A stretch of DNA of 12,406 nucleotides from the NCBI GenBank assembly GCA_051117555.1, contig JBNPEG010000019.1, positions 1-12,406 of the forward strand, read 5' to 3'. Of this stretch, positions 1 to 12,068 are shown in pieces. This DNA comes from Elainellaceae cyanobacterium. GTDB lineage: Bacteria > Cyanobacteriota > Cyanobacteriia > CAZCXK01. The first letter of the stretch is position 1; every line of letters begins with the position of its first letter. The notes below the pieces were generated by a model. It searched no databases, was not told where the DNA came from, and saw nothing but the letters and a program-made list of their open reading frames with translations. Both the position numbers and the translations under genes were made by a program.

Positions 1-122
1 TAAAACGGGTCGAAAAGTTGCTGAAGATTTCAAAGCCAACATGAAGATTGTCTTCGATGAAGTTTTACCACAATGGAATTACACAGCCAAACCAGAATTA
101 CAGATTATTTAATTCCCGTTCC
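1..122 (+). mobile_element. Right end of an ISAzo13-like IS; putative terminal inverted repeat ~104-122, possible 3-bp target duplication TTA 123-125
   Basis: The transposase stop overlaps ATTATTTAATTCCCGTTCC, which is followed by TTA. The boundary is inferred because the left end is not in the window. Confidence 0.55.
2..112 (+). CDS. C-terminal fragment of an ISAzo13-family (DDE_Tnp_ISAZ013-like) transposase; 5' part lies outside the window
   Basis: Manual translation from base 2 gives KTGRKVAEDFKANMKIVFDEVLPQWNYTAKPELQII* (TAA 110-112). This matches my recollection of the cyanobacterial ISAzo13 transposase C-terminus (TGRKV..DFK..M.I.FD..LP.WNY). Not in the ORF track because it has no start codon in the window. 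Confidence 0.75.
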   Translation, partial: KTGRKVAEDFKANMKIVFDEVLPQWNYTAKPELQII

Positions 123-127
123 TTAGT

Positions 128-241
128 CTAAACTCCAGTGATGAAGGGAGATCCCGCTATCGGTGAAGGGAGCAATGGCACCTGTCGAGTCTTGCTCTCT
201 GCTGTCGTGCCTGGGTCGGGCAGAGAACGAATTACTTTTTT
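128..241 (-). pseudogene. -1-frame continuation of the CHAT-TIR gene (KKVIRSLPDPGTTAESKTRQVPLLPSPIAGSPFITGV*); probable truncated start of a linker + ATPase region
   Basis: Frame is open from the slippery site (241) to TAG 130-128. It encodes a Pro-rich linker then SPFITG, resembling the (N/S)P(F/Y)xxG motif that precedes Walker A in many STAND/AAA ATPases. It stops a few bases from the putative IS end. Confidence 0.45.
170..241 (-). promoter_or_regulatory. Putative programmed -1 ribosomal frameshift signal (A_AAA_AAG + downstream stimulatory structure)
   Basis: Minus strand reads TCA AAA AAG TAA (243-232), heptamer at 241-235 in X_XXY_YYZ phase. Stem TCTCTGC(226-220)/GCAGAGA(202-196) starts 8 nt later. 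Second stem GAGCAA(197-192)/TTGCTC(175-170). Loop GGCAC(211-207) is complementary to GTGCC(181-177). Confidence 0.6.
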
Positions 242-1347
242 GACAGAGATTCTACGGCGCGGCGAATGCCTTGAACTATATCTAGGAACGCAGAGTCGCG
301 ATCGCCCCATTGAGTGACTGGCTTTCCATCCTCAGGCAATGCCTTGAGTTTGCTGAAGGGAGAATCTTTCCAATCACAGGGGCGAAGAATAATAGGAATA
401 ACACGAGCCGTACCTTCCTCATGACGCTGCATGGCTCGCTGCATTTCAATGTCATAACAATAGTCTGATGCCATAAAAGGTGGACTAATCAGCAGCAAAA
501 TAATGCGAGCCGATTCTAGCTTGGCTTTAATTTGGGCATCCCATTCGTCTCCTGCTTCAACAGCACGATCGTGCCATGCTGTAATCTTTTTCTGACGTTT
601 TAAGTTCGAGAGATGGATAACCAACTCGTCCTGTAAGTCATCATCGTTGTGGGAATAGGAGATGAAAACTTCAAGTGGGGCTTGGGAGGCATGAGGCTGG
701 TTTGGAGACATGGGAGTTGGTATTGAATCGGGAGACATAGGATCGACCTGAATCAGTGCCTCGTCGGTTGCAGGTTGCTTCAAAATGACCGGGGTTAGAT
801 GCTCAGCAATGCCCTCCATTTGAATTGCGGCACAGCCTAGCTTATAGGCAAACTCCACGTCACGACCCGCACCCAAGGCATCGTAAAAGCCAACCGCAAA
901 GGCGATCGCCGCTCTATCCCCGATCGCTTTGTTCATCCCAATCACATAGGGGATGTGCCGTGAAATAGCCTGAGCCTGCACCTCTGAATAGCAGCCATTC
1001 AGCACCACACAGGTAATCTGGTCGGCGAATAATTCAAACAAGCCTGACAGCGCACCCCCATTTACCAACTTGGCCTTACCCACGTCATCTTCAAAAACCA
1101 ATCCTTCCTCTCCTGCCCCATGCCCAGAGAAGTGAATGATTTGCGGGCTGATATCCAGCATGGCTCGTTGAATATCACGGGGGCGCACAGCCATGCGTTG
1201 TTCTAGGGTAAATTGGTCGCGCTTTTGGGCGCGTTGCAGCCCGTCACTAATATCACGCAGCTCCTGATCGAGCCGCAGGCGACCCGTATCTTTGGGGTTA
1301 GCGGCAAGAAACAGAATCGTTTGTGGATCGGCACTGAGGAAGGACAT
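232..1347 (-). CDS. CHAT (caspase-like peptidase) domain + C-terminal TIR domain protein, ~371 aa
   Basis: N-terminal ILFLAANPK...LRLDQE...HFSGHG (1134-1117)...VVLNGC (LNGC 1002-991) carries the CHAT His/Cys dyad. After a Pro-rich linker, VFISYSH...AWHDR...AGDEW...ILLLIS..F.ASDYCYDIEM...VIPIILRPCDW is a TIR_2 domain with the conserved Glu (447-445). ATG at 1347 is preferred to the TTG start at 1389. Confidence 0.9.
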   Translation of the reverse strand: MSFLSADPQTILFLAANPKDTGRLRLDQELRDISDGLQRAQKRDQFTLEQRMAVRPRDIQRAMLDISPQIIHFSGHGAGEEGLVFEDDVGKAKLVNGGALSGLFELFADQITCVVLNGCYSEVQAQAISRHIPYVIGMNKAIGDRAAIAFAVGFYDALGAGRDVEFAYKLGCAAIQMEGIAEHLTPVILKQPATDEALIQVDPMSPDSIPTPMSPNQPHASQAPLEVFISYSHNDDDLQDELVIHLSNLKRQKKITAWHDRAVEAGDEWDAQIKAKLESARIILLLISPPFMASDYCYDIEMQRAMQRHEEGTARVIPIILRPCDWKDSPFSKLKALPEDGKPVTQWGDRDSAFLDIVQGIRRAVESLSKK

Positions 1348-1433
1348 GAAAAGCAGCGAAAAACTAGCAGCGTGATTCAGGTGCCTCAATTATTGCCCGA
1401 AAAAAGAGAATGCGCTATTGATCTCAGTCACCG

Positions 1434-3715: not shown

Positions 3716-5458
3716 CTAGTTAGACTTTATCCTTGTTATACAGGCAGCATCGAGTGCTATCAGGTTTTTTTCCGCAAACACTGAACAGTGTCCAAGCAGA
3801 GGGGCGATCGCCGGTAATTGTCCTTGTTCAAGCCGCGCCTTAACCTGGCGTACCTCAGCGCGAATCGAGCTATTGAGTAACCAGTGTTGACGACTCAGAT
3901 ACAGGGGCTGCTGAAAATCACGATCAACAATGAGATAATCAATGCCGTAGGTATTTAAAAGCGACTGAACCGTTGACAAATCTGGGCTGTATTGCACTGC
4001 GAGCGTATCTCTAATTCGCTGCGTCATGACCGTATAAAACTCCGGATGATAGGGCAATGCCAGTTCTTCACTGACTAATACCGATCGCTGGGCGAATGCC
4101 GGGATATTATTGGTTTCAGCCGTTAACGAAGCAATTAGCGTGTCGTTGGGCTGCTGCGCCAGAAATTGATAGAGACTGGGCGTCGTTCCGATCACCCATC
4201 CTTGACAGGGAATCACCCATGCGGGAATAGCTGGAACCACTACGATCGCGATCGCCAATAGCCCCATCAGCCAAATTTTCATTGAAGTATATAACGGCAA
4301 TCGAGTATACTGCTGCCGCTGAGTTAAGACCCAACGCCGAAGCCTATCAAGCAGGATCGTGAGAACGATGCCTGTGGCGATCGCCATCACCACCCGCAGA
4401 CTGTAAAAGGTATATCGACTCGGAAGATATAAGGTCGGAAATAGCAGATGCGCCGCCCCAAACAATCCCAAAGAGGCAATCACGCACTGCCCAAGAATGC
4501 GGATGTCTCGCGTCAGGTGCTGGGCAAGTGGCGAACGAGCCTTCGCAAACCACGGAAGCAAGACGCCGATTCCGATAATAGGGGGGAATAGGGGAAACCT
4601 GAGACCGCTCGCGCCGCTGAACCAAAACTGAATCGGATGAACGCCAAAATATTCTCGCCGCCCCTCTGGCTGAAACTCTGGCATTGCTTTCATCTGCTCA
4701 GCGGTGACCAGATCTCCTACCTGGTTAGACACGCCGGATGAAAACACCAGCAGCATAAAACCGACAATGGCGATCGCCCCTAGCCAGACTGCATAGGTGC
4801 TCTGACGTGAACGCTTTGCAGACAAACCTTTCCAGTGAATCAATCGCAGGGTTAATATGCCGACCTCAACGAGCATGAGTTGGGGATAAAACAGCCCTTG
4901 CAAAAAAATCGTCATCAAGCACGGGAGGGGCGATCGCCTGACGAGGTAATACAAAAAAGCAGCAAAGAGAGGATACACAAACGCTCTGGGCGTTGCCGAC
5001 ACTAGGTCATCTTTGAGCCAAATATTTTGATTAAAAATTAGCGCGACTAACACCCCGCTCATCGGCACCGGCAACAGATAGTGCGCCACGTGAAACAAGT
5101 AGACGGTCGCAATGATGGCTAAGCCGAGGGGTAGGAGTTTAGCAAACACGAGAGGGGTAATCCCGATGTGAGCCATCAGCCCATAGACCCATTGAAAGCC
5201 AACGGATTGAATCGCCGAATAGTAGTCTGCAATCACATCGTGGGTGAACAATTGCGGATCGACAAACCGCTGAAGCCAAACAATGTGAATTCGAGCATCG
5301 TCTTGAACGACGTACCTCTGGCTAAACGCATGTTGAATCGCCAATAGCCCATAATACAGCGGAGCCATGAGGCTCAAACAAAGCCATCCCCAGCGAACGG
5401 GGTGGGGGCGATCGCGCTCGATTGGACTAGGATTAAACCCCTGATGAAACCAATCCAT
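3716..5458 (-). CDS. Multipass membrane protein, putative GT-C-fold glycosyltransferase, 580 aa
   Basis: About 10-12 hydrophobic segments. Acidic QDDAR motif (D53-D54) in the loop after the first TM helix. C-terminal soluble domain with YGIDYLIVD. This topology is typical of GT-C enzymes; function is inferred. Confidence 0.6.
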   Translation of the reverse strand: MDWFHQGFNPSPIERDRPHPVRWGWLCLSLMAPLYYGLLAIQHAFSQRYVVQDDARIHIVWLQRFVDPQLFTHDVIADYYSAIQSVGFQWVYGLMAHIGITPLVFAKLLPLGLAIIATVYLFHVAHYLLPVPMSGVLVALIFNQNIWLKDDLVSATPRAFVYPLFAAFLYYLVRRSPLPCLMTIFLQGLFYPQLMLVEVGILTLRLIHWKGLSAKRSRQSTYAVWLGAIAIVGFMLLVFSSGVSNQVGDLVTAEQMKAMPEFQPEGRREYFGVHPIQFWFSGASGLRFPLFPPIIGIGVLLPWFAKARSPLAQHLTRDIRILGQCVIASLGLFGAAHLLFPTLYLPSRYTFYSLRVVMAIATGIVLTILLDRLRRWVLTQRQQYTRLPLYTSMKIWLMGLLAIAIVVVPAIPAWVIPCQGWVIGTTPSLYQFLAQQPNDTLIASLTAETNNIPAFAQRSVLVSEELALPYHPEFYTVMTQRIRDTLAVQYSPDLSTVQSLLNTYGIDYLIVDRDFQQPLYLSRQHWLLNSSIRAEVRQVKARLEQGQLPAIAPLLGHCSVFAEKNLIALDAACITRIKSN

Positions 5459-8279: not shown

Positions 8280-11200
8280 TTATTTCGACGAACATAGGTG
8301 TTTTCTCTCCCCTCCTATGTCCTCATGCCGAGTGACCTCACGAGACGGCGCGATCGCCCCTAGCGCAATCAGGGCAGATTGCTGAACATCCGTGAGCCCT
8401 TGAATTCCTGATATAGTCGTGCCTGCATAAATCTTATCGGCACTGAGAATAGTCCGGCAGTTGCCCGTAGGGAGATGCCACAGTCGAACGGTTTCATCTT
8501 GGCTGCCGCTAATCACCGTTCTACCATCCCCGCTAAAGGCGACCGACCATGCCAGGTTGGTATGTCCGTGCAGGTTCCGGTAGCAGGTGCCTGTTTCAAT
8601 GTCCCAGATCTTCACGGTGCGATCGCTGCTGGCACTGGCAATCTTGCGGCCATTGGGGCTAAAGGCAACTGACCACACCCGGCTGGTGTGTCCATAAAAT
8701 GTTTGCACACATGATGCTTGATTGATATCCCAAAGCTTCACAGTATGGTCGCCACTTCCGGTCGCAATCAGTTGACCATCTGGGCTAAACGCCACTGCCC
8801 ATACCCATGCATCATGTCCCTTCAGTGTGCGCACACATCGGTTTGTCCTCAGATCCCAAATCTTTGCGGTTTGGTCATAACTGCCCGTCACGAGGTGGTG
8901 TCCCGTTGGGCTAAACGCGACGGAGCAGACCCAACTCGTATGTCCTCGCAGCGTCGTCGTACATTGCCCTGATTCGATATCCCAAAGCTTGACTGTGCTA
9001 TCTTCGCTACTGCTTGCAAGGGTTTTTCCATCGGGGCCGAATGCAACTGACCAGACGCGGCTGGTATGCCCACAAAACGTCTGCACGCATTCTCCCGTCT
9101 CAATATTCCATAGCTTTACGGTTTGGTCGTCGCTGCCGCTGGCAAGGAGATGAGATCGAACTGCCACAGAACAAACCGAGCTTGTATGCCCGCGAAGAAC
9201 TCGATAGGGGCGATCGCTCGAATACCTACCAATTTTCCACACCGTAATGGTGGCGCCGTCATTGCCGCTGGCGATGATTGAATCTGCTCTCCACCGGGTC
9301 GTAGCCTGTTGGGAATCTACCGCGACCGCCCAAACCCGATTGGTATATCCGTGCAAGGTTCTACTACATTGGCGATCGCAAACATTCCAAAGTTTAACGG
9401 TATGATCTCCACTACTGCTGGCAAGGCTGTGCCCATCTGGGCTAAAGGCCACCGATCGAATCCAATTGGTGTGTCCATGCAAGGTGGATAAACACGTTCC
9501 AGACTCGATATCCCATAGCTTTATCGTTTTGTCTTCGCTGCCGCTGGCGAGAATCTTGCCATCGGGGCTCAAGGCGATCGCGCGAATCCAGTTGGTGTGG
9601 CCATGCAACGTTTGGGAACAGGTGCCTGTCTTGATATTCCAAATTTTCACAGTGCGATCGCTACTGCTGCTGGCAATGTGCTCACCGTCCATACTGACAG
9701 CCACTGACCAGACCCGATCGGTATGCCCTGAGAGCGTTTGATCGCAGTTGCCCGTTGCCAAATTCCATACTTTAATAGTTCGATCCTCGCTGCCGCTGAT
9801 GAGAGTCATTCCATCGGGGCATAGGGCGATCGCGCGAACCCAGCCCCCATGACCGGTTAGGGTGCGTTGACATCTCCCCGTCATCAGATCCCACTCCTTG
9901 ATGGTGTAGTCTTCAGAACTACTTAACAGGGTGTTGCCGTCCGCACTAAACACCAGAGATGACACGTGCCCGACATGCCCCTCCAAGGTCTGTTCACATT
10001 GCCCCGTCCGCATATTCCAAACTTTAATCGTCTGATCGTCACCGCCGCTCGCCACGCGAGTGCCGTCGGGACTCACCGCTATAGCCCAAATCCAACCGTC
10101 ATGTCTCTTACAGATGTGCTGCAACTGCCCCGTCAATCGGTTCCAAATCCGCACCTGACCCTCGGCATCTCCGGTCACTAAATGCTGACCATCCGGGCTA
10201 AAGGCGATCGCCAGCGGCACTCCAAAGCTTTCCGTGAATGCAGATTGAGAAACGTAAGCATGCGACAGATTGACGCGATGAAGTTCACCGCGCAAGTCTG
10301 CCTGTCGAAGCGCGAGATGAGACAGGTCATAGCCATCGAAGCACGCTCCAAGCTGTCGCAAGAGGTTAACGAGATTGCCTCCGGCATAGCCCACATCATG
10401 AGGTGCCTTTCCTCGAAAGCTCACCAGCACTTCTACTAACCGCTGTTCAACACGGGTAGATGCTCCCAAAATCGCGCGGAGCTGATTGAGAATAGGCTGA
10501 GCAATCAAGACGGCTTGTGTGTCTCGGATATAATCGGGAGCTTGCGCTTTTAAGACGGCGTAGCGAGAAATAGATCGAGTCGCAAGACGGGATGGCCGGT
10601 GAGGCGATCGCGCTCGTGGATAACTCTCATCAGCGTTCTGAATTCCGGTATTCAGACTCTTGGGCGACTGAACGACGGATAGAAACCCTAACAGTTGCAT
10701 CACATCTTGCGTAATCTGTTTGATGAGTCGGTGCGTCACATAATCCATTACGATGGACTGCTGAGTATATCGGCATCCATTAGCATTGGCAAATGTCTCA
10801 ATCAGCGAACGGCGTTGGAGGGAGGCGATCGCCTGAATGATCTCTCCAGTAGAAACAGGATGAACCACATCATCGACAAGTTCCACGAGTGAAACAGGCT
10901 CTCGATTGATGGCGAGCCAATGCATCACCGTTTGTTCCAGCTCACTGAGCCGATAAAACTGCTGATCAAGCACGTCACGAATATCGTCAAAAACAACGAT
11001 ACCTTTTTCTAAAAAGCCTAAGAAATGTGAAATATCGCCATCAAATGAGTCACAAATGGTAGGCGCAATCAGTTTGAGAGCAAGGGGATTGCCGCCATAA
11101 TAGTTGACCAATTGAGCAAAATCAGCATCGTCCCCGTGAACATTTGCATGATGAGAAATGACCTGCTGACCCGCAGCAGCAGAAAGTGGGTCAACGGATA

Positions 11201-12068
11201 AACAGTGCATATTGGGCAGACTGCTTAACCTGCTGGGCTGCTCTCGCGAGGTCAACATCAGGCAACTTTGATGCGATGATTCTCCGATGTAAGTAAACAG
11301 TTGCTCGTATTTCTCATATCCGTCACGATAGTTGCCCGCGCGATCGCCCGGTTTTAATATAGATTCGACATTATCAAACACCAACAAACATCGCTGTTCT
11401 CGTAAATGATGAAGTAGTACAGGCAGGCATCCATCAAGAATATTGGGCAGTGTAAGCTGCTGAGCTGACAAGTGCTGTGTAATATCAACCACCAGTGTTT
11501 CAACAGCAGGTGCGTTGCGAAGATTGCGCCAGATGATCCGGTCAAAATCATGCTGGTGCAGTCGGGAAAACCAGGCTGCGAGAGAGGTCTTTCCCATACC
11601 CCCCATCCCTATTATGCTGACCATGCAACCGCTTGGATGAGGGCTTTCTGTACTGCCAAAGATCCACTGTTCAAGGGTCGCTAGTTCATTCTGTCGACCG
11701 TAGATGCTATCGGTTGTAGGCTCATCGCCCCAATCAGGTGGGCAAGTCTTGCAACGTGGATCAGAATCGGGGCGATCGCGAGCCACTGAGGACGGCTTGT
11801 CGGCATGCAGATGAGACGAGAGACGAGGCGATATCTCATCGTCGCAGCCTCCCGCAGATACGGTTCTCCAATCGACATGAACGGCATCGCAGATCGCGAT
11901 AAAAATCTCGCGTCGAATTGGCTGACCCGCCCAAAATCGACTCAGGGTTGCCCGCGACGTAAACGCTGCTTCGCACCAAATTGAAGCTGTTTTATTCCAG
12001 TTTTTGTGTCGTCGCGCCTGATCGACCCGATGTAGTCCTGGTTGAGATGCACATACAGAATCAACCAT
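8280..12068 (-). CDS. STAND NTPase: N-terminal HTH-like domain, NB-ARC, pentapeptide repeats and 14 WD40 repeats, 1262 aa
   Basis: DWG...YGRQNEL, Walker A GMGGMGKT (11609-11586), Walker B LLVFDNVE, LTSRE, GNPLAL, DLSHLALRQADL, and 14 counted GH...W(D/N) repeats. GGAGG lies 9 nt before ATG 12068. Confidence 0.93.
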   Translation of the reverse strand: MVDSVCASQPGLHRVDQARRHKNWNKTASIWCEAAFTSRATLSRFWAGQPIRREIFIAICDAVHVDWRTVSAGGCDDEISPRLSSHLHADKPSSVARDRPDSDPRCKTCPPDWGDEPTTDSIYGRQNELATLEQWIFGSTESPHPSGCMVSIIGMGGMGKTSLAAWFSRLHQHDFDRIIWRNLRNAPAVETLVVDITQHLSAQQLTLPNILDGCLPVLLHHLREQRCLLVFDNVESILKPGDRAGNYRDGYEKYEQLFTYIGESSHQSCLMLTSREQPSRLSSLPNMHCLSVDPLSAAAGQQVISHHANVHGDDADFAQLVNYYGGNPLALKLIAPTICDSFDGDISHFLGFLEKGIVVFDDIRDVLDQQFYRLSELEQTVMHWLAINREPVSLVELVDDVVHPVSTGEIIQAIASLQRRSLIETFANANGCRYTQQSIVMDYVTHRLIKQITQDVMQLLGFLSVVQSPKSLNTGIQNADESYPRARSPHRPSRLATRSISRYAVLKAQAPDYIRDTQAVLIAQPILNQLRAILGASTRVEQRLVEVLVSFRGKAPHDVGYAGGNLVNLLRQLGACFDGYDLSHLALRQADLRGELHRVNLSHAYVSQSAFTESFGVPLAIAFSPDGQHLVTGDAEGQVRIWNRLTGQLQHICKRHDGWIWAIAVSPDGTRVASGGDDQTIKVWNMRTGQCEQTLEGHVGHVSSLVFSADGNTLLSSSEDYTIKEWDLMTGRCQRTLTGHGGWVRAIALCPDGMTLISGSEDRTIKVWNLATGNCDQTLSGHTDRVWSVAVSMDGEHIASSSSDRTVKIWNIKTGTCSQTLHGHTNWIRAIALSPDGKILASGSEDKTIKLWDIESGTCLSTLHGHTNWIRSVAFSPDGHSLASSSGDHTVKLWNVCDRQCSRTLHGYTNRVWAVAVDSQQATTRWRADSIIASGNDGATITVWKIGRYSSDRPYRVLRGHTSSVCSVAVRSHLLASGSDDQTVKLWNIETGECVQTFCGHTSRVWSVAFGPDGKTLASSSEDSTVKLWDIESGQCTTTLRGHTSWVCSVAFSPTGHHLVTGSYDQTAKIWDLRTNRCVRTLKGHDAWVWAVAFSPDGQLIATGSGDHTVKLWDINQASCVQTFYGHTSRVWSVAFSPNGRKIASASSDRTVKIWDIETGTCYRNLHGHTNLAWSVAFSGDGRTVISGSQDETVRLWHLPTGNCRTILSADKIYAGTTISGIQGLTDVQQSALIALGAIAPSREVTRHEDIGGERKHLCSSK

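Follow-up and report, generated by a model that had tools for sequence, protein, structure and literature searches.

By -1 frameshifting on one messenger RNA (mRNA) in each case, the phage tail assembly chaperones (G and GT) and the carboxysome proteins CsoS2A and CsoS2B are produced in two lengths whose ratio is fixed for an assembly. To our knowledge, conserved programmed -1 frameshifts are few among the chromosomal, non-mobile genes of bacteria (dnaX, copA, csoS2 and cdd). Among the insertion sequences (IS) of the IS1 and IS3 families, 72% of the slippery heptamers are A_AAA_AAG or A_AAA_AAA (PMC4066793, in excerpt). The present analysis concerns a window of 12,406 nucleotides (nt), the whole stretch of DNA analysed, from an Elainellaceae cyanobacterium (genome G000; assembly GCA_051117555.1, contig JBNPEG010000019.1), and in it the end of a gene for an effector protein with a CHAT and a TIR domain. 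Comparison with related loci indicates that this gene end is probably a conserved programmed -1 frameshift cassette, which in relatives would give a free effector together with an effector-ATPase fusion and which in this genome has been broken by an IS.

The proposed cassette would consist of a slippery A_AAA_AAG, a 6-nt spacer containing the 0-frame stop, and a conserved stem-loop, perhaps extended by a pseudoknot. In intact relatives the majority of ribosomes would obey the 0-frame stop and yield the free effector (TIR or CHAT-TIR), and a minority would move back by one base while on the two lysine codons. The slipped ribosomes would then read a linker of 21-28 codons into a P-loop ATPase of the AAA_16/nSTAND1 kind, of about 285 amino acids (aa), and their product would be an effector-ATPase fusion with the architecture of the TIR-ATPase and CHAT-ATPase proteins that occur as single open reading frames (ORFs). 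Such slippage from effector to ATPase by way of heptamer and hairpin in the intact relatives is strongly supported by the sequence comparison, because the -1 frame relation is constant, the heptamer is conserved at the nucleotide level, the hairpin covaries and in-frame fusions contain the predicted junction. From these comparisons we infer the shifting of ribosomes itself, the ratio of the two products and their biological role.

The CHAT-TIR junction and the severed ATPase

The effector is encoded by a 385-aa ORF (Table 1) that opens on a TTG codon, and the ATG at 1347 (residue 15, MSFLSADPQ...), from where the alignments of homologues begin, is more likely to be the start. The TIR_2 domain (PF13676) is recognized by Pfam at residues 241-348 (61.9 bits, 1.1e-16; curated cut-off 28), and the CHAT domain (PF12770) at residues 40-178 (27.3 bits, 3.2e-06; curated cut-off 24), where the match spans profile positions 103-255 of 289. 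PADLOC assigns the protein to its ThsB1 TIR-like model (2.1e-60) and the N-terminal part to its chat model (8.2e-23). The gene is not filed here as Thoeris: the TIR domain matches the ThsB1 model, but the conserved partner is an ATPase, and no search for ThsA was made. Kaur, Burroughs, Iyer and Aravind described in 2020 a set of NTP-dependent conflict systems in multicellular bacteria, to which both effector and ATPase belong (PMC7159879).

A preliminary description of this sequence had read the gene end as TCA AAA AAG TAA with A_AAA_AAG in phase, and direct reading bears this out. The stem it had placed 8 nt downstream with 7 base pairs is real, although it has 9 pairs, including one G-U, and begins 6 nt past the heptamer. 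The -1 frame from the heptamer reads identically to that description, as VIRSLPDPGTTAESKTRQVPLLPSPIAGSPFITG, and is followed by V and then a TAG, for 35 codons in all. The description had this frame leading into an ATPase, which does not occur within the window: the TAG at 130..128 intervenes, and the 35-codon extension has no Pfam match. This stretch is homologous to the -1 frame of two related loci, L046 (same genus, genome G002) and L012 (IIRSLPNPGT...ESPFITGTPISHPRHFFGRQ), where the frame runs on into a 288-aa ATPase with a Walker A motif. A -1-frame ORF from the ATG at 310 was considered and rejected, as this start is not conserved (any start near -80 is present in only 3 of 13 sequences) and is a by-product of the QW codons. 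Comparison of the junction with Rfam gave five matches, all far under the gathering score (best E = 2.3), and thus no known RNA family; in a promoter and terminator scan, a terminator-like site was absent at the junction.

The decoding apparatus makes slippage at such a site plausible. In Escherichia coli, A_AA.A_AA.G is among the three most efficient heptamers when accompanied by a stimulator, an efficiency attributed to the shiftiness of Lys-tRNA(UUU) on AAG (PMC4066793, in excerpt). ARAGORN identified 42 transfer RNAs (tRNAs) in the cyanobacterial genome, and the sole tRNA-Lys has the anticodon UUU, with no CUU.

The stop that closes the -1 frame was rejected as a native stop, its position lying inside a 16-base-pair (bp) IS terminus. 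Also rejected was the -1 frame as a dead end without an ATPase, since homologues carry the ATPase in this frame and the remainder of the gene is located elsewhere in the assembly. The 288-aa ATPase of the same genus, used as a query, has one match in the genome, on contig C242, with 84% identity from query residue 8 onward. The Walker A motif of this genome's ATPase (GQRRSGKTS) sits on C242 and not in the window, in keeping with a caveat of the preliminary description. Read on the ATPase sense strand, the window runs ...TCTCCC TTCATCA, then CTGGAGTTTAGACTAA, then the ISAzo13-like end, and C242 runs ...TTAGTCTAAACTCCAG, then TTCATCA CAGGGACGCCC..., with the IS terminus adjoining the ATPase remainder in inverted orientation. 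Once the insert is removed in silico, the sequence equals that of the same-genus homologue except for 2 bases in 30. Judged from these junctions, the ATPase gene of this genome is cut by an IS at codon ...F-I-T, 32 codons past the slip site.

The window is the start of its contig (C24), and the contig end falls inside an ISAzo13-like repeat. The first 109-127 bases or so recur at eight contig ends of the genome, with flanks that diverge after ...CCCGTTCC+TWAN, and the outer 12 bases of the 16-bp terminus occur at ten places (C24, which is the window, C242, C43, C78, C106, C139, C182, C206, C213 and C248). A 36-aa transposase fragment matches the last 31 positions of the ISAzo13 models of Pfam (18.3 bits, cut-off 26.9) and NCBIfam (21.1 bits, cut-off 200), below both cut-offs because only the last 36 aa are present in the window. 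The body of the ISAzo13-like element is absent from the assembly, in which only the eight contig ends bear its end. Window positions 1-138 and positions 1915-2039 of C242 (locus L044) together outline the insertion in the ATPase gene: its inverted termini measure 16 bp, the duplicated target 7 bp, and on the window side the ISAzo13-like copy adjoins it at TTAG. The inserted element is apparently nested or composite. The practical point for this genome is that the module is IS-broken. The cassette itself is intact, yet a frameshift could add only a tail of 35 residues, and the cassette is here most likely a relic.

Table 1. Window coordinates of the effector gene, the junction elements and the inserted sequence
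Feature	Position	Strand	Detail
CHAT-TIR effector gene	232..1389	minus	385-aa ORF from TTG 1389; sources: ORF list, Pfam, PADLOC
Slippery heptamer A_AAA_AAG	241..235	minus	in X_XXY_YYZ phase; codons TCA AAA AAG; same in-phase type in 22 of 33 homologous junctions
0-frame stop TAA	234..232	minus	in the spacer from heptamer to stem
Stem-loop	228..194	minus	5' arm GTTCTCTGC 228..220; 17-nt loop 219..203; 3' arm GCAGAGAGC 202..194
Native -1-frame coding stretch	235..139	minus	linker VIRSLPDPGTTAESKTRQVPLLPSPIAG, then ATPase opening motif SPFIT
Possible pseudoknot pairing	211..177	minus	loop GGCAC 211..207 with GTGCC 181..177; conserved GTG 181..179 inside the pairing
Terminal inverted repeat, 16 bp	138..123		CTGGAGTTTAGACTAA on the minus strand; part of inserted element; supplies the TAG 130..128 that closes the -1 frame
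Target-site duplication, 7 bp	145..139		TTCATCA in minus-strand reading; second copy at the C242 junction
ISAzo13-like IS end	1..122	plus	transposase 3' end 2..112 including stop; convergent with the CHAT-TIR gene

Frame, slippery site and hairpin in related loci

Related loci were collected by means of the ATPase and not by means of the heptamer, and the heptamer count is therefore a fair one. Among 401 genomes searched from the class, 39 had a match, giving 30 loci, and 18 of the 173 genomes that make up one family had a match as well; 77 metagenome loci were added. The 17 genomes in the family of G093 were all in the sample already. A uniform script was applied to the 119 loci with an ATPase match (27 from the class, 15 from the family and 77 from metagenomes). 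A junction was defined by an upstream ORF ending no more than 150 nt before the xPFxxG motif that opens the ATPase, with a minimum ORF length of 100 codons (30 for an ORF truncated by a contig end). Five loci (L079, L082, L108, L132 and L145) were not counted as junctions, having either a long N-terminal domain in the ATPase frame or a short ORF cut by the contig end.

An upstream ORF ends just before the ATPase in 33 of the 119 loci, and relative to it the ATPase is in the -1 frame in 30, in the +1 frame in two and in frame in one. An in-phase A_AAA_AAR is present in 22 of the 33 (AAG in 21, AAA in L046) and an in-phase C_CCT one codon ahead of a TAG in a further six. In all 28 motif-bearing junctions the -1 frame is open from the slippery motif into the ATPase. 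Two -1 cases remain: at L150 the -1 frame is closed and the ATPase is an independent gene that starts from an ATG of its own, and L108 is a stub of 33 codons at a contig end; both +1 cases (L132 and L145) are contig-end-cut ORFs at which the ATPase frame has a long in-frame extension. A contrast set, the ordinary upstream neighbours of ATPases with a long N-terminus, is mixed (five in +1, six in -1). In two metagenome loci of high G+C content (L142 and L143, about 1100-1300) a long ORF in another frame crosses the ATPase start, and in L161 (about 1290-1310) the ATPase itself switches frame after a FFGRERELKRLF motif; a frameshift, an error or decay could underlie these cases.

The slippery site is kept at the nucleotide level beyond what the protein requires. 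In the window and 21 loci the codon preceding the lysines is GCA (11), TCA (5), ACA (3), CTA (1), GGA (1) or CCA (1), with L096 adding another GCA; six different amino acids are thus encoded ahead of the lysines and the third base is A every time. The lysines are AAA AAR in 22 of 22, in a genome whose lysine codons are 57% AAA and 43% AAG. Conserved AAA AAG codon choice was one of the features that the preliminary description proposed to look for in homologues.

A downstream hairpin was another such feature, and it is both conserved and covarying. In an alignment of 13 sequences, 88.6% of the cells of the stem are paired, versus 46-56% when the partner is slid; 8 of 12 pairs are altered on both sides, and the covariation score of 0.47, versus 0.26 for shuffles, was reached by 0 of 500 shuffles. 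The stem begins 2-8 nt past the heptamer in 21 of the 22 junctions, the remaining one (L092) having a bulged stem found only by RNAfold. The stop directly follows the heptamer in most junctions and lies one codon further in L105 and L152 and five codons further in L111, where it falls in the hairpin loop. Because the stem spacing stays at 2-8 nt as the distance to the stop varies from 0 to 1 or 5 codons, the geometry is tied to the heptamer and not to the stop; the conserved unit is therefore heptamer-spacer-stem rather than a C-terminal KK. The loop often contains GGCAC(C), complementary to a (G)GTGCC about 10 nt beyond the stem, at the same positions in the window, L046, L051, L083, L084, L093-095, L111 and others. 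This pairing shows no covariation, as both sides are invariant, and in the sequences for which it is the best-scoring match between 42 and 230 of 500 shuffles reach its score (80 of 500 for the window). An H-type pseudoknot is nonetheless a possibility, and would also explain the conserved GTG that lies within the pairing.

The C_CCT junctions (L047, L071, L075, L077, L087 and L099) form a second type, in which upstream genes end ...C CCT CRN TAG and the ATPase is in the -1 frame. A strong, G+C-rich hairpin of about 10 bp (CCCCTTCG.../...CGRAGGGG) stands 6 nt past the motif, and the upstream genes encode TIR, CHAT or PGAP1/DUF676-like esterase proteins. These six junctions carry a recognized though weak motif, because C_CC.U figures in the order of slippery tetramers in E. 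coli (A_AA.G >> U_UU.C > U_UU.U > C_CC.U = C_CC.C > A_AA.A; PMC4066793, in excerpt).

From the heptamer to xPFxxG the linker is 21-28 codons in 19 of the 22 junctions, with differences that are always whole codons; the pattern is unmatched in L057, L068 and L070. The same linker is translated in proteins that need no shift. A protein search with the ATPase found 1277 proteins at E <= 1e-20, and the best 120 of these include many single-ORF fusions, among them TIR-ATPase (443-477 aa), CHAT-ATPase (476-482 aa) and helix-turn-helix (HTH)-ATPase (about 360 aa). In a set of 21 of these proteins inspected at the residue level, P0029 and P0045 contain ...DSLTKKVI(N/T)PQP..., the string predicted for a -1 shift at the junction (window ...ESLSKK|VIRSLP), and P0011 contains ...NSIIQPTIAHSNNADLRSQG, which matches the product predicted for the C_CCT shift of L075, ...NSIIHP|SIAPSINNTDARSEGQ, including an S/T residue that is encoded only in the -1 frame. 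The in-frame fusion L098, the one fused junction read as DNA, has no heptamer, and its linker PKRPQLTETV compares with KKVTCPQLTLGT in the -1 frame of the split L096 (PKRPQLT matching KKVTCPQLT).

In a FastTree phylogeny of the 119 ATPase domains, a quick and unrooted tree used only qualitatively, split and fused TIR forms interleave, and the heptamer label changes at least six times when only well-supported branches are considered. The cassette also accompanies a second ATPase clade (L068 and L070) that is only 27% identical to the main clade. Profile scores bearing on the family of the ATPase are mixed: the ATPase of L039 falls below the cut-offs for AAA_16 (PF13191; 29.9 bits, cut-off 32.6) and nSTAND1 (PF20703; 21.1 bits, cut-off 27.1), the nSTAND1 score is 37.2 bits for the ATPase of L040, above 27.1, and 34.1 bits for L060, and the GxxxxGKT/S and hhhhDE motifs are visible in the alignment. 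No match was found among the NCBIfam and PADLOC models.

The kind of mechanism proposed here is known; its setting in TIR and CHAT conflict genes has, as far as was found, not been described before. The words "frameshift", "recoding", "slippery" and "readthrough" are absent from the main text of PMC7159879 and of its 2021 sequel, PMC8195603, and TIR and ATPase are absent from the main text of the GeneTack survey of conserved frame transitions, PMC3711429. Titles and abstracts retrieved in a literature search report no programmed frameshift for TIR, CHAT or STAND-type immunity or conflict genes.

Alternative explanations and implications

Several observations, including the start codons discussed below, weigh against programmed frameshifting. 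In single-sequence folding the window hairpin is not unusually stable relative to shuffles (z = -0.28), and in-phase A_AAA_AAR sites are not rare in this genome (95 among 3460 ORFs of at least 200 codons, of which only 2 lie within three codons of the stop); for both reasons the case beyond chance rests on the relatives. The surveyed sequences are themselves kin, and the counts and covariation figures overstate their independence. Of the 22 junctions, 13 have a Shine-Dalgarno-like GGAG/GAGG at 8-11 nt ahead of the heptamer; the window has none, as the preliminary description had observed. Two orthologues without a downstream ATPase (L011 and L022) still end GCA AAA AAG TAG, and the heptamer can therefore persist without its target; L011 still has the initial 23 bases of the spacer of its neighbour, and a recent deletion seems likely there. 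The six junctions without a heptamer depend on the weaker C_CCT tetramer. Lastly, in L076 (650-900) a single TAG parts the TIR gene from an ATPase that shares its frame, with no heptamer, no hairpin and no ATG, GTG or TTG from the TAG to SPFITG; read-through, a nonsense mutation of recent date or an error could each explain this arrangement.

The best-surviving alternative, which is nevertheless unlikely, is that of two ordinary genes. The ATPase would initiate at the conserved GTG (window 181..179), the hairpin would mask its ribosome-binding site (translational coupling) or stabilize the mRNA, terminating ribosomes would open the hairpin, and the heptamer would be a by-product of a conserved KK C-terminus. 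An in-frame GTG does stand 17-19 codons past the heptamer in 15 of the 22 junctions, and four more have other in-frame starts (L048, L152, L105 and L056); the ATPase is therefore not strictly start-less. In L057, however, no ATG, GTG or TTG occurs from the stop to the ATPase, and the only candidate start in L050 and L053 is a TTG within the 5' arm, none lying beyond the hairpin; separate initiation leaves these three loci unexplained. The 3' arm is purine-rich (GAGGA/GGAGG-like), as expected of a masked ribosome-binding site, and in L077 a TTG follows GGAGGGG by 4-5 nt, but GAGGA lies at least 13 nt ahead of the GTG, far for a Shine-Dalgarno sequence, and the GTG may be kept for the pairing between loop and downstream sequence instead. 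Free-standing ATPases with their own ATG exist (L150 and L144), and public gene calls give the ATPase as a separate protein of about 288 aa. What two genes would not account for is the A-ending third base of six different preceding codons, the choice of AAA AAG rather than AAG AAG (22 of 22), the 28 junctions at which the ATPase occupies a -1 frame that is open from the motif onward, the variation of the heptamer-GTG distance by whole codons only (17, 18, 19 and 21) and the translation of the same linker in the in-frame fused homologues. Initiation and frameshifting could also operate together and give three products.

Transcriptional slippage, in which RNA polymerase adds one A in the A6 run and yields a minority mRNA in one frame with the same protein product, is very improbable. 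The site is a homopolymer (A6 in most junctions, A7 in L046) and poly-A runs are known slippage sites, but the run is short by the measure of the same source, which cites transcriptional realignment for more than 7 As (PMC3711429). The G that follows the run in 21 of 22 and the unvarying X_XXY_YYZ phase are needed by no polymerase, and the hairpin at a fixed 2-8 nt and the six C_CCT junctions without an A run would go unexplained. Decay or artefact, whereby a fused TIR-ATPase gene has lost one nucleotide from a homopolymer or its A run has been miscounted and the split is functionless, is scarcely credible. In its favour, homopolymers readily suffer indels and errors of assembly, fused versions in one frame are known and this genome's copy is indeed broken (by an IS). 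Against it, 22 loci of many genera and metagenomes have the same split, in which the stop immediately follows the heptamer and the ORF downstream is intact; the split spans ATPases down to 27% identity, leaves both ORFs open and conserved and goes together with a covarying hairpin. A bypass like that of T4 gene 60 (stop, hairpin and a gap of about 50 nt) was rejected, as a matching take-off and landing codon is missing in L070.

Programmed -1 frameshifting thus remains the favoured account, and the proposal of the preliminary description, a free effector plus a fusion, gains comparative support in the intact relatives, though in the window the ATPase frame is cut by the IS. Should this account be true, standard annotation misdescribes the whole family as two genes or a pseudogene instead of an effector plus a fusion, and selection would act, in a death or immunity module of prokaryotes, on the stoichiometry between effector that is free and effector that is tethered to the ATPase. 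The family would also be a testable system, with relatives that make the same fusion by three routes (in frame, by heptamer and by tetramer).

A wider proposal, which must be held as doubtful, is that of a portable recoding module of cyanobacterial conflict systems, with a fixed small fraction of fusion product and a recoding site that is possibly part of sensing. Unrelated effectors (TIR, CHAT-TIR, CHAT and serine esterase) would all be coupled to the same small ATPase through interchangeable signals of low efficiency, namely the A_AAA_AAG heptamer, the C_CCU tetramer and, in one lineage, an in-frame TAG. Because the shift would depend on a single tRNA-Lys(UUU) and on the speed of the ribosome over the hairpin, the ratio of free to fused effector could change when translation is attacked (by cleavage of the tRNA, by loss of its modification or by phage shut-off), and the recoding site would then contribute to sensing in an immune or cell-death switch.

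Neighbouring genes and comparison with known systems

Downstream of the ATPase (C242, locus L044, 358-1089 and 2-361; L041, 718-3609) are an 88-aa ORF and a 149-aa HNH protein with weak NCBIfam matches to the HNH regions of IscB and Cas9. These are followed by the start of a multi-pass membrane protein, the homologue of which in G050 has 963 aa and a C-terminal AAA_22/ATPase_2 region. The membrane-ATPase gene trails the small ATPase in G050, G002 and G000, and the module may therefore have a third conserved gene. Elsewhere in the genome, contig C22 (about 61128, plus strand) has the only other in-phase A_AAA_AAR site with a -1 frame open for more than 100 codons past the 0-frame stop (255 codons), which may be an IS or another case of recoding. 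Within the window, positions 8280-12068 (minus strand) encode a 1262-aa protein with about 13 WD40 repeats and an N-terminal stretch that, by eye, is similar to the HTH-like domain which proteins of the in-frame group carry joined to the small ATPase; this is probably another STAND-type conflict gene of the neighbourhood. A 580-aa ORF at 3716-5458 (minus strand), apparently a multi-pass membrane protein, has no Pfam match at E <= 0.01.

The junction shares with E. coli dnaX, the source of tau and gamma, the heptamer A_AAA_AAG, a single tRNA-Lys(UUU), a stem-loop at a short spacer and, by prediction, two products with a common N-terminus (for dnaX in part PMC3711429), and a part of the homologues (13 of 22) also has the Shine-Dalgarno-like GGAG 8-11 nt upstream. 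The outcome is different: the shift in dnaX leads to a quick stop and a shorter protein, whereas at this junction termination in the 0 frame is immediate and a shift would extend the protein by a whole ATPase domain. The gene family is also another one, and the cassette described here is a predicted one.

Closer than dnaX is the OrfA-OrfAB arrangement of IS3 and IS911. In these elements A_AAA_AAG or A_AAA_AAA is likewise combined with a hairpin or pseudoknot and a 0-frame stop soon after, and the shift joins a small upstream product to a larger downstream catalytic domain without a good start of its own. Unlike these elements, the present module is not mobile; it belongs to a conflict or immunity-type locus and encodes an effector (TIR or CHAT-TIR) together with a P-loop ATPase. 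The G and GT chaperones and CsoS2A and CsoS2B follow the same logic as is proposed here with unrelated proteins. Nearest in protein content are the TIR-, CHAT- and HTH-ATPase proteins that cyanobacteria encode in a single ORF, with the same ATPase (71-77% identity to the query), the same effector domains and the same linker before xPFxxG. Their architecture is that of the predicted trans-frame product, and they differ in being encoded in one frame with no stop.

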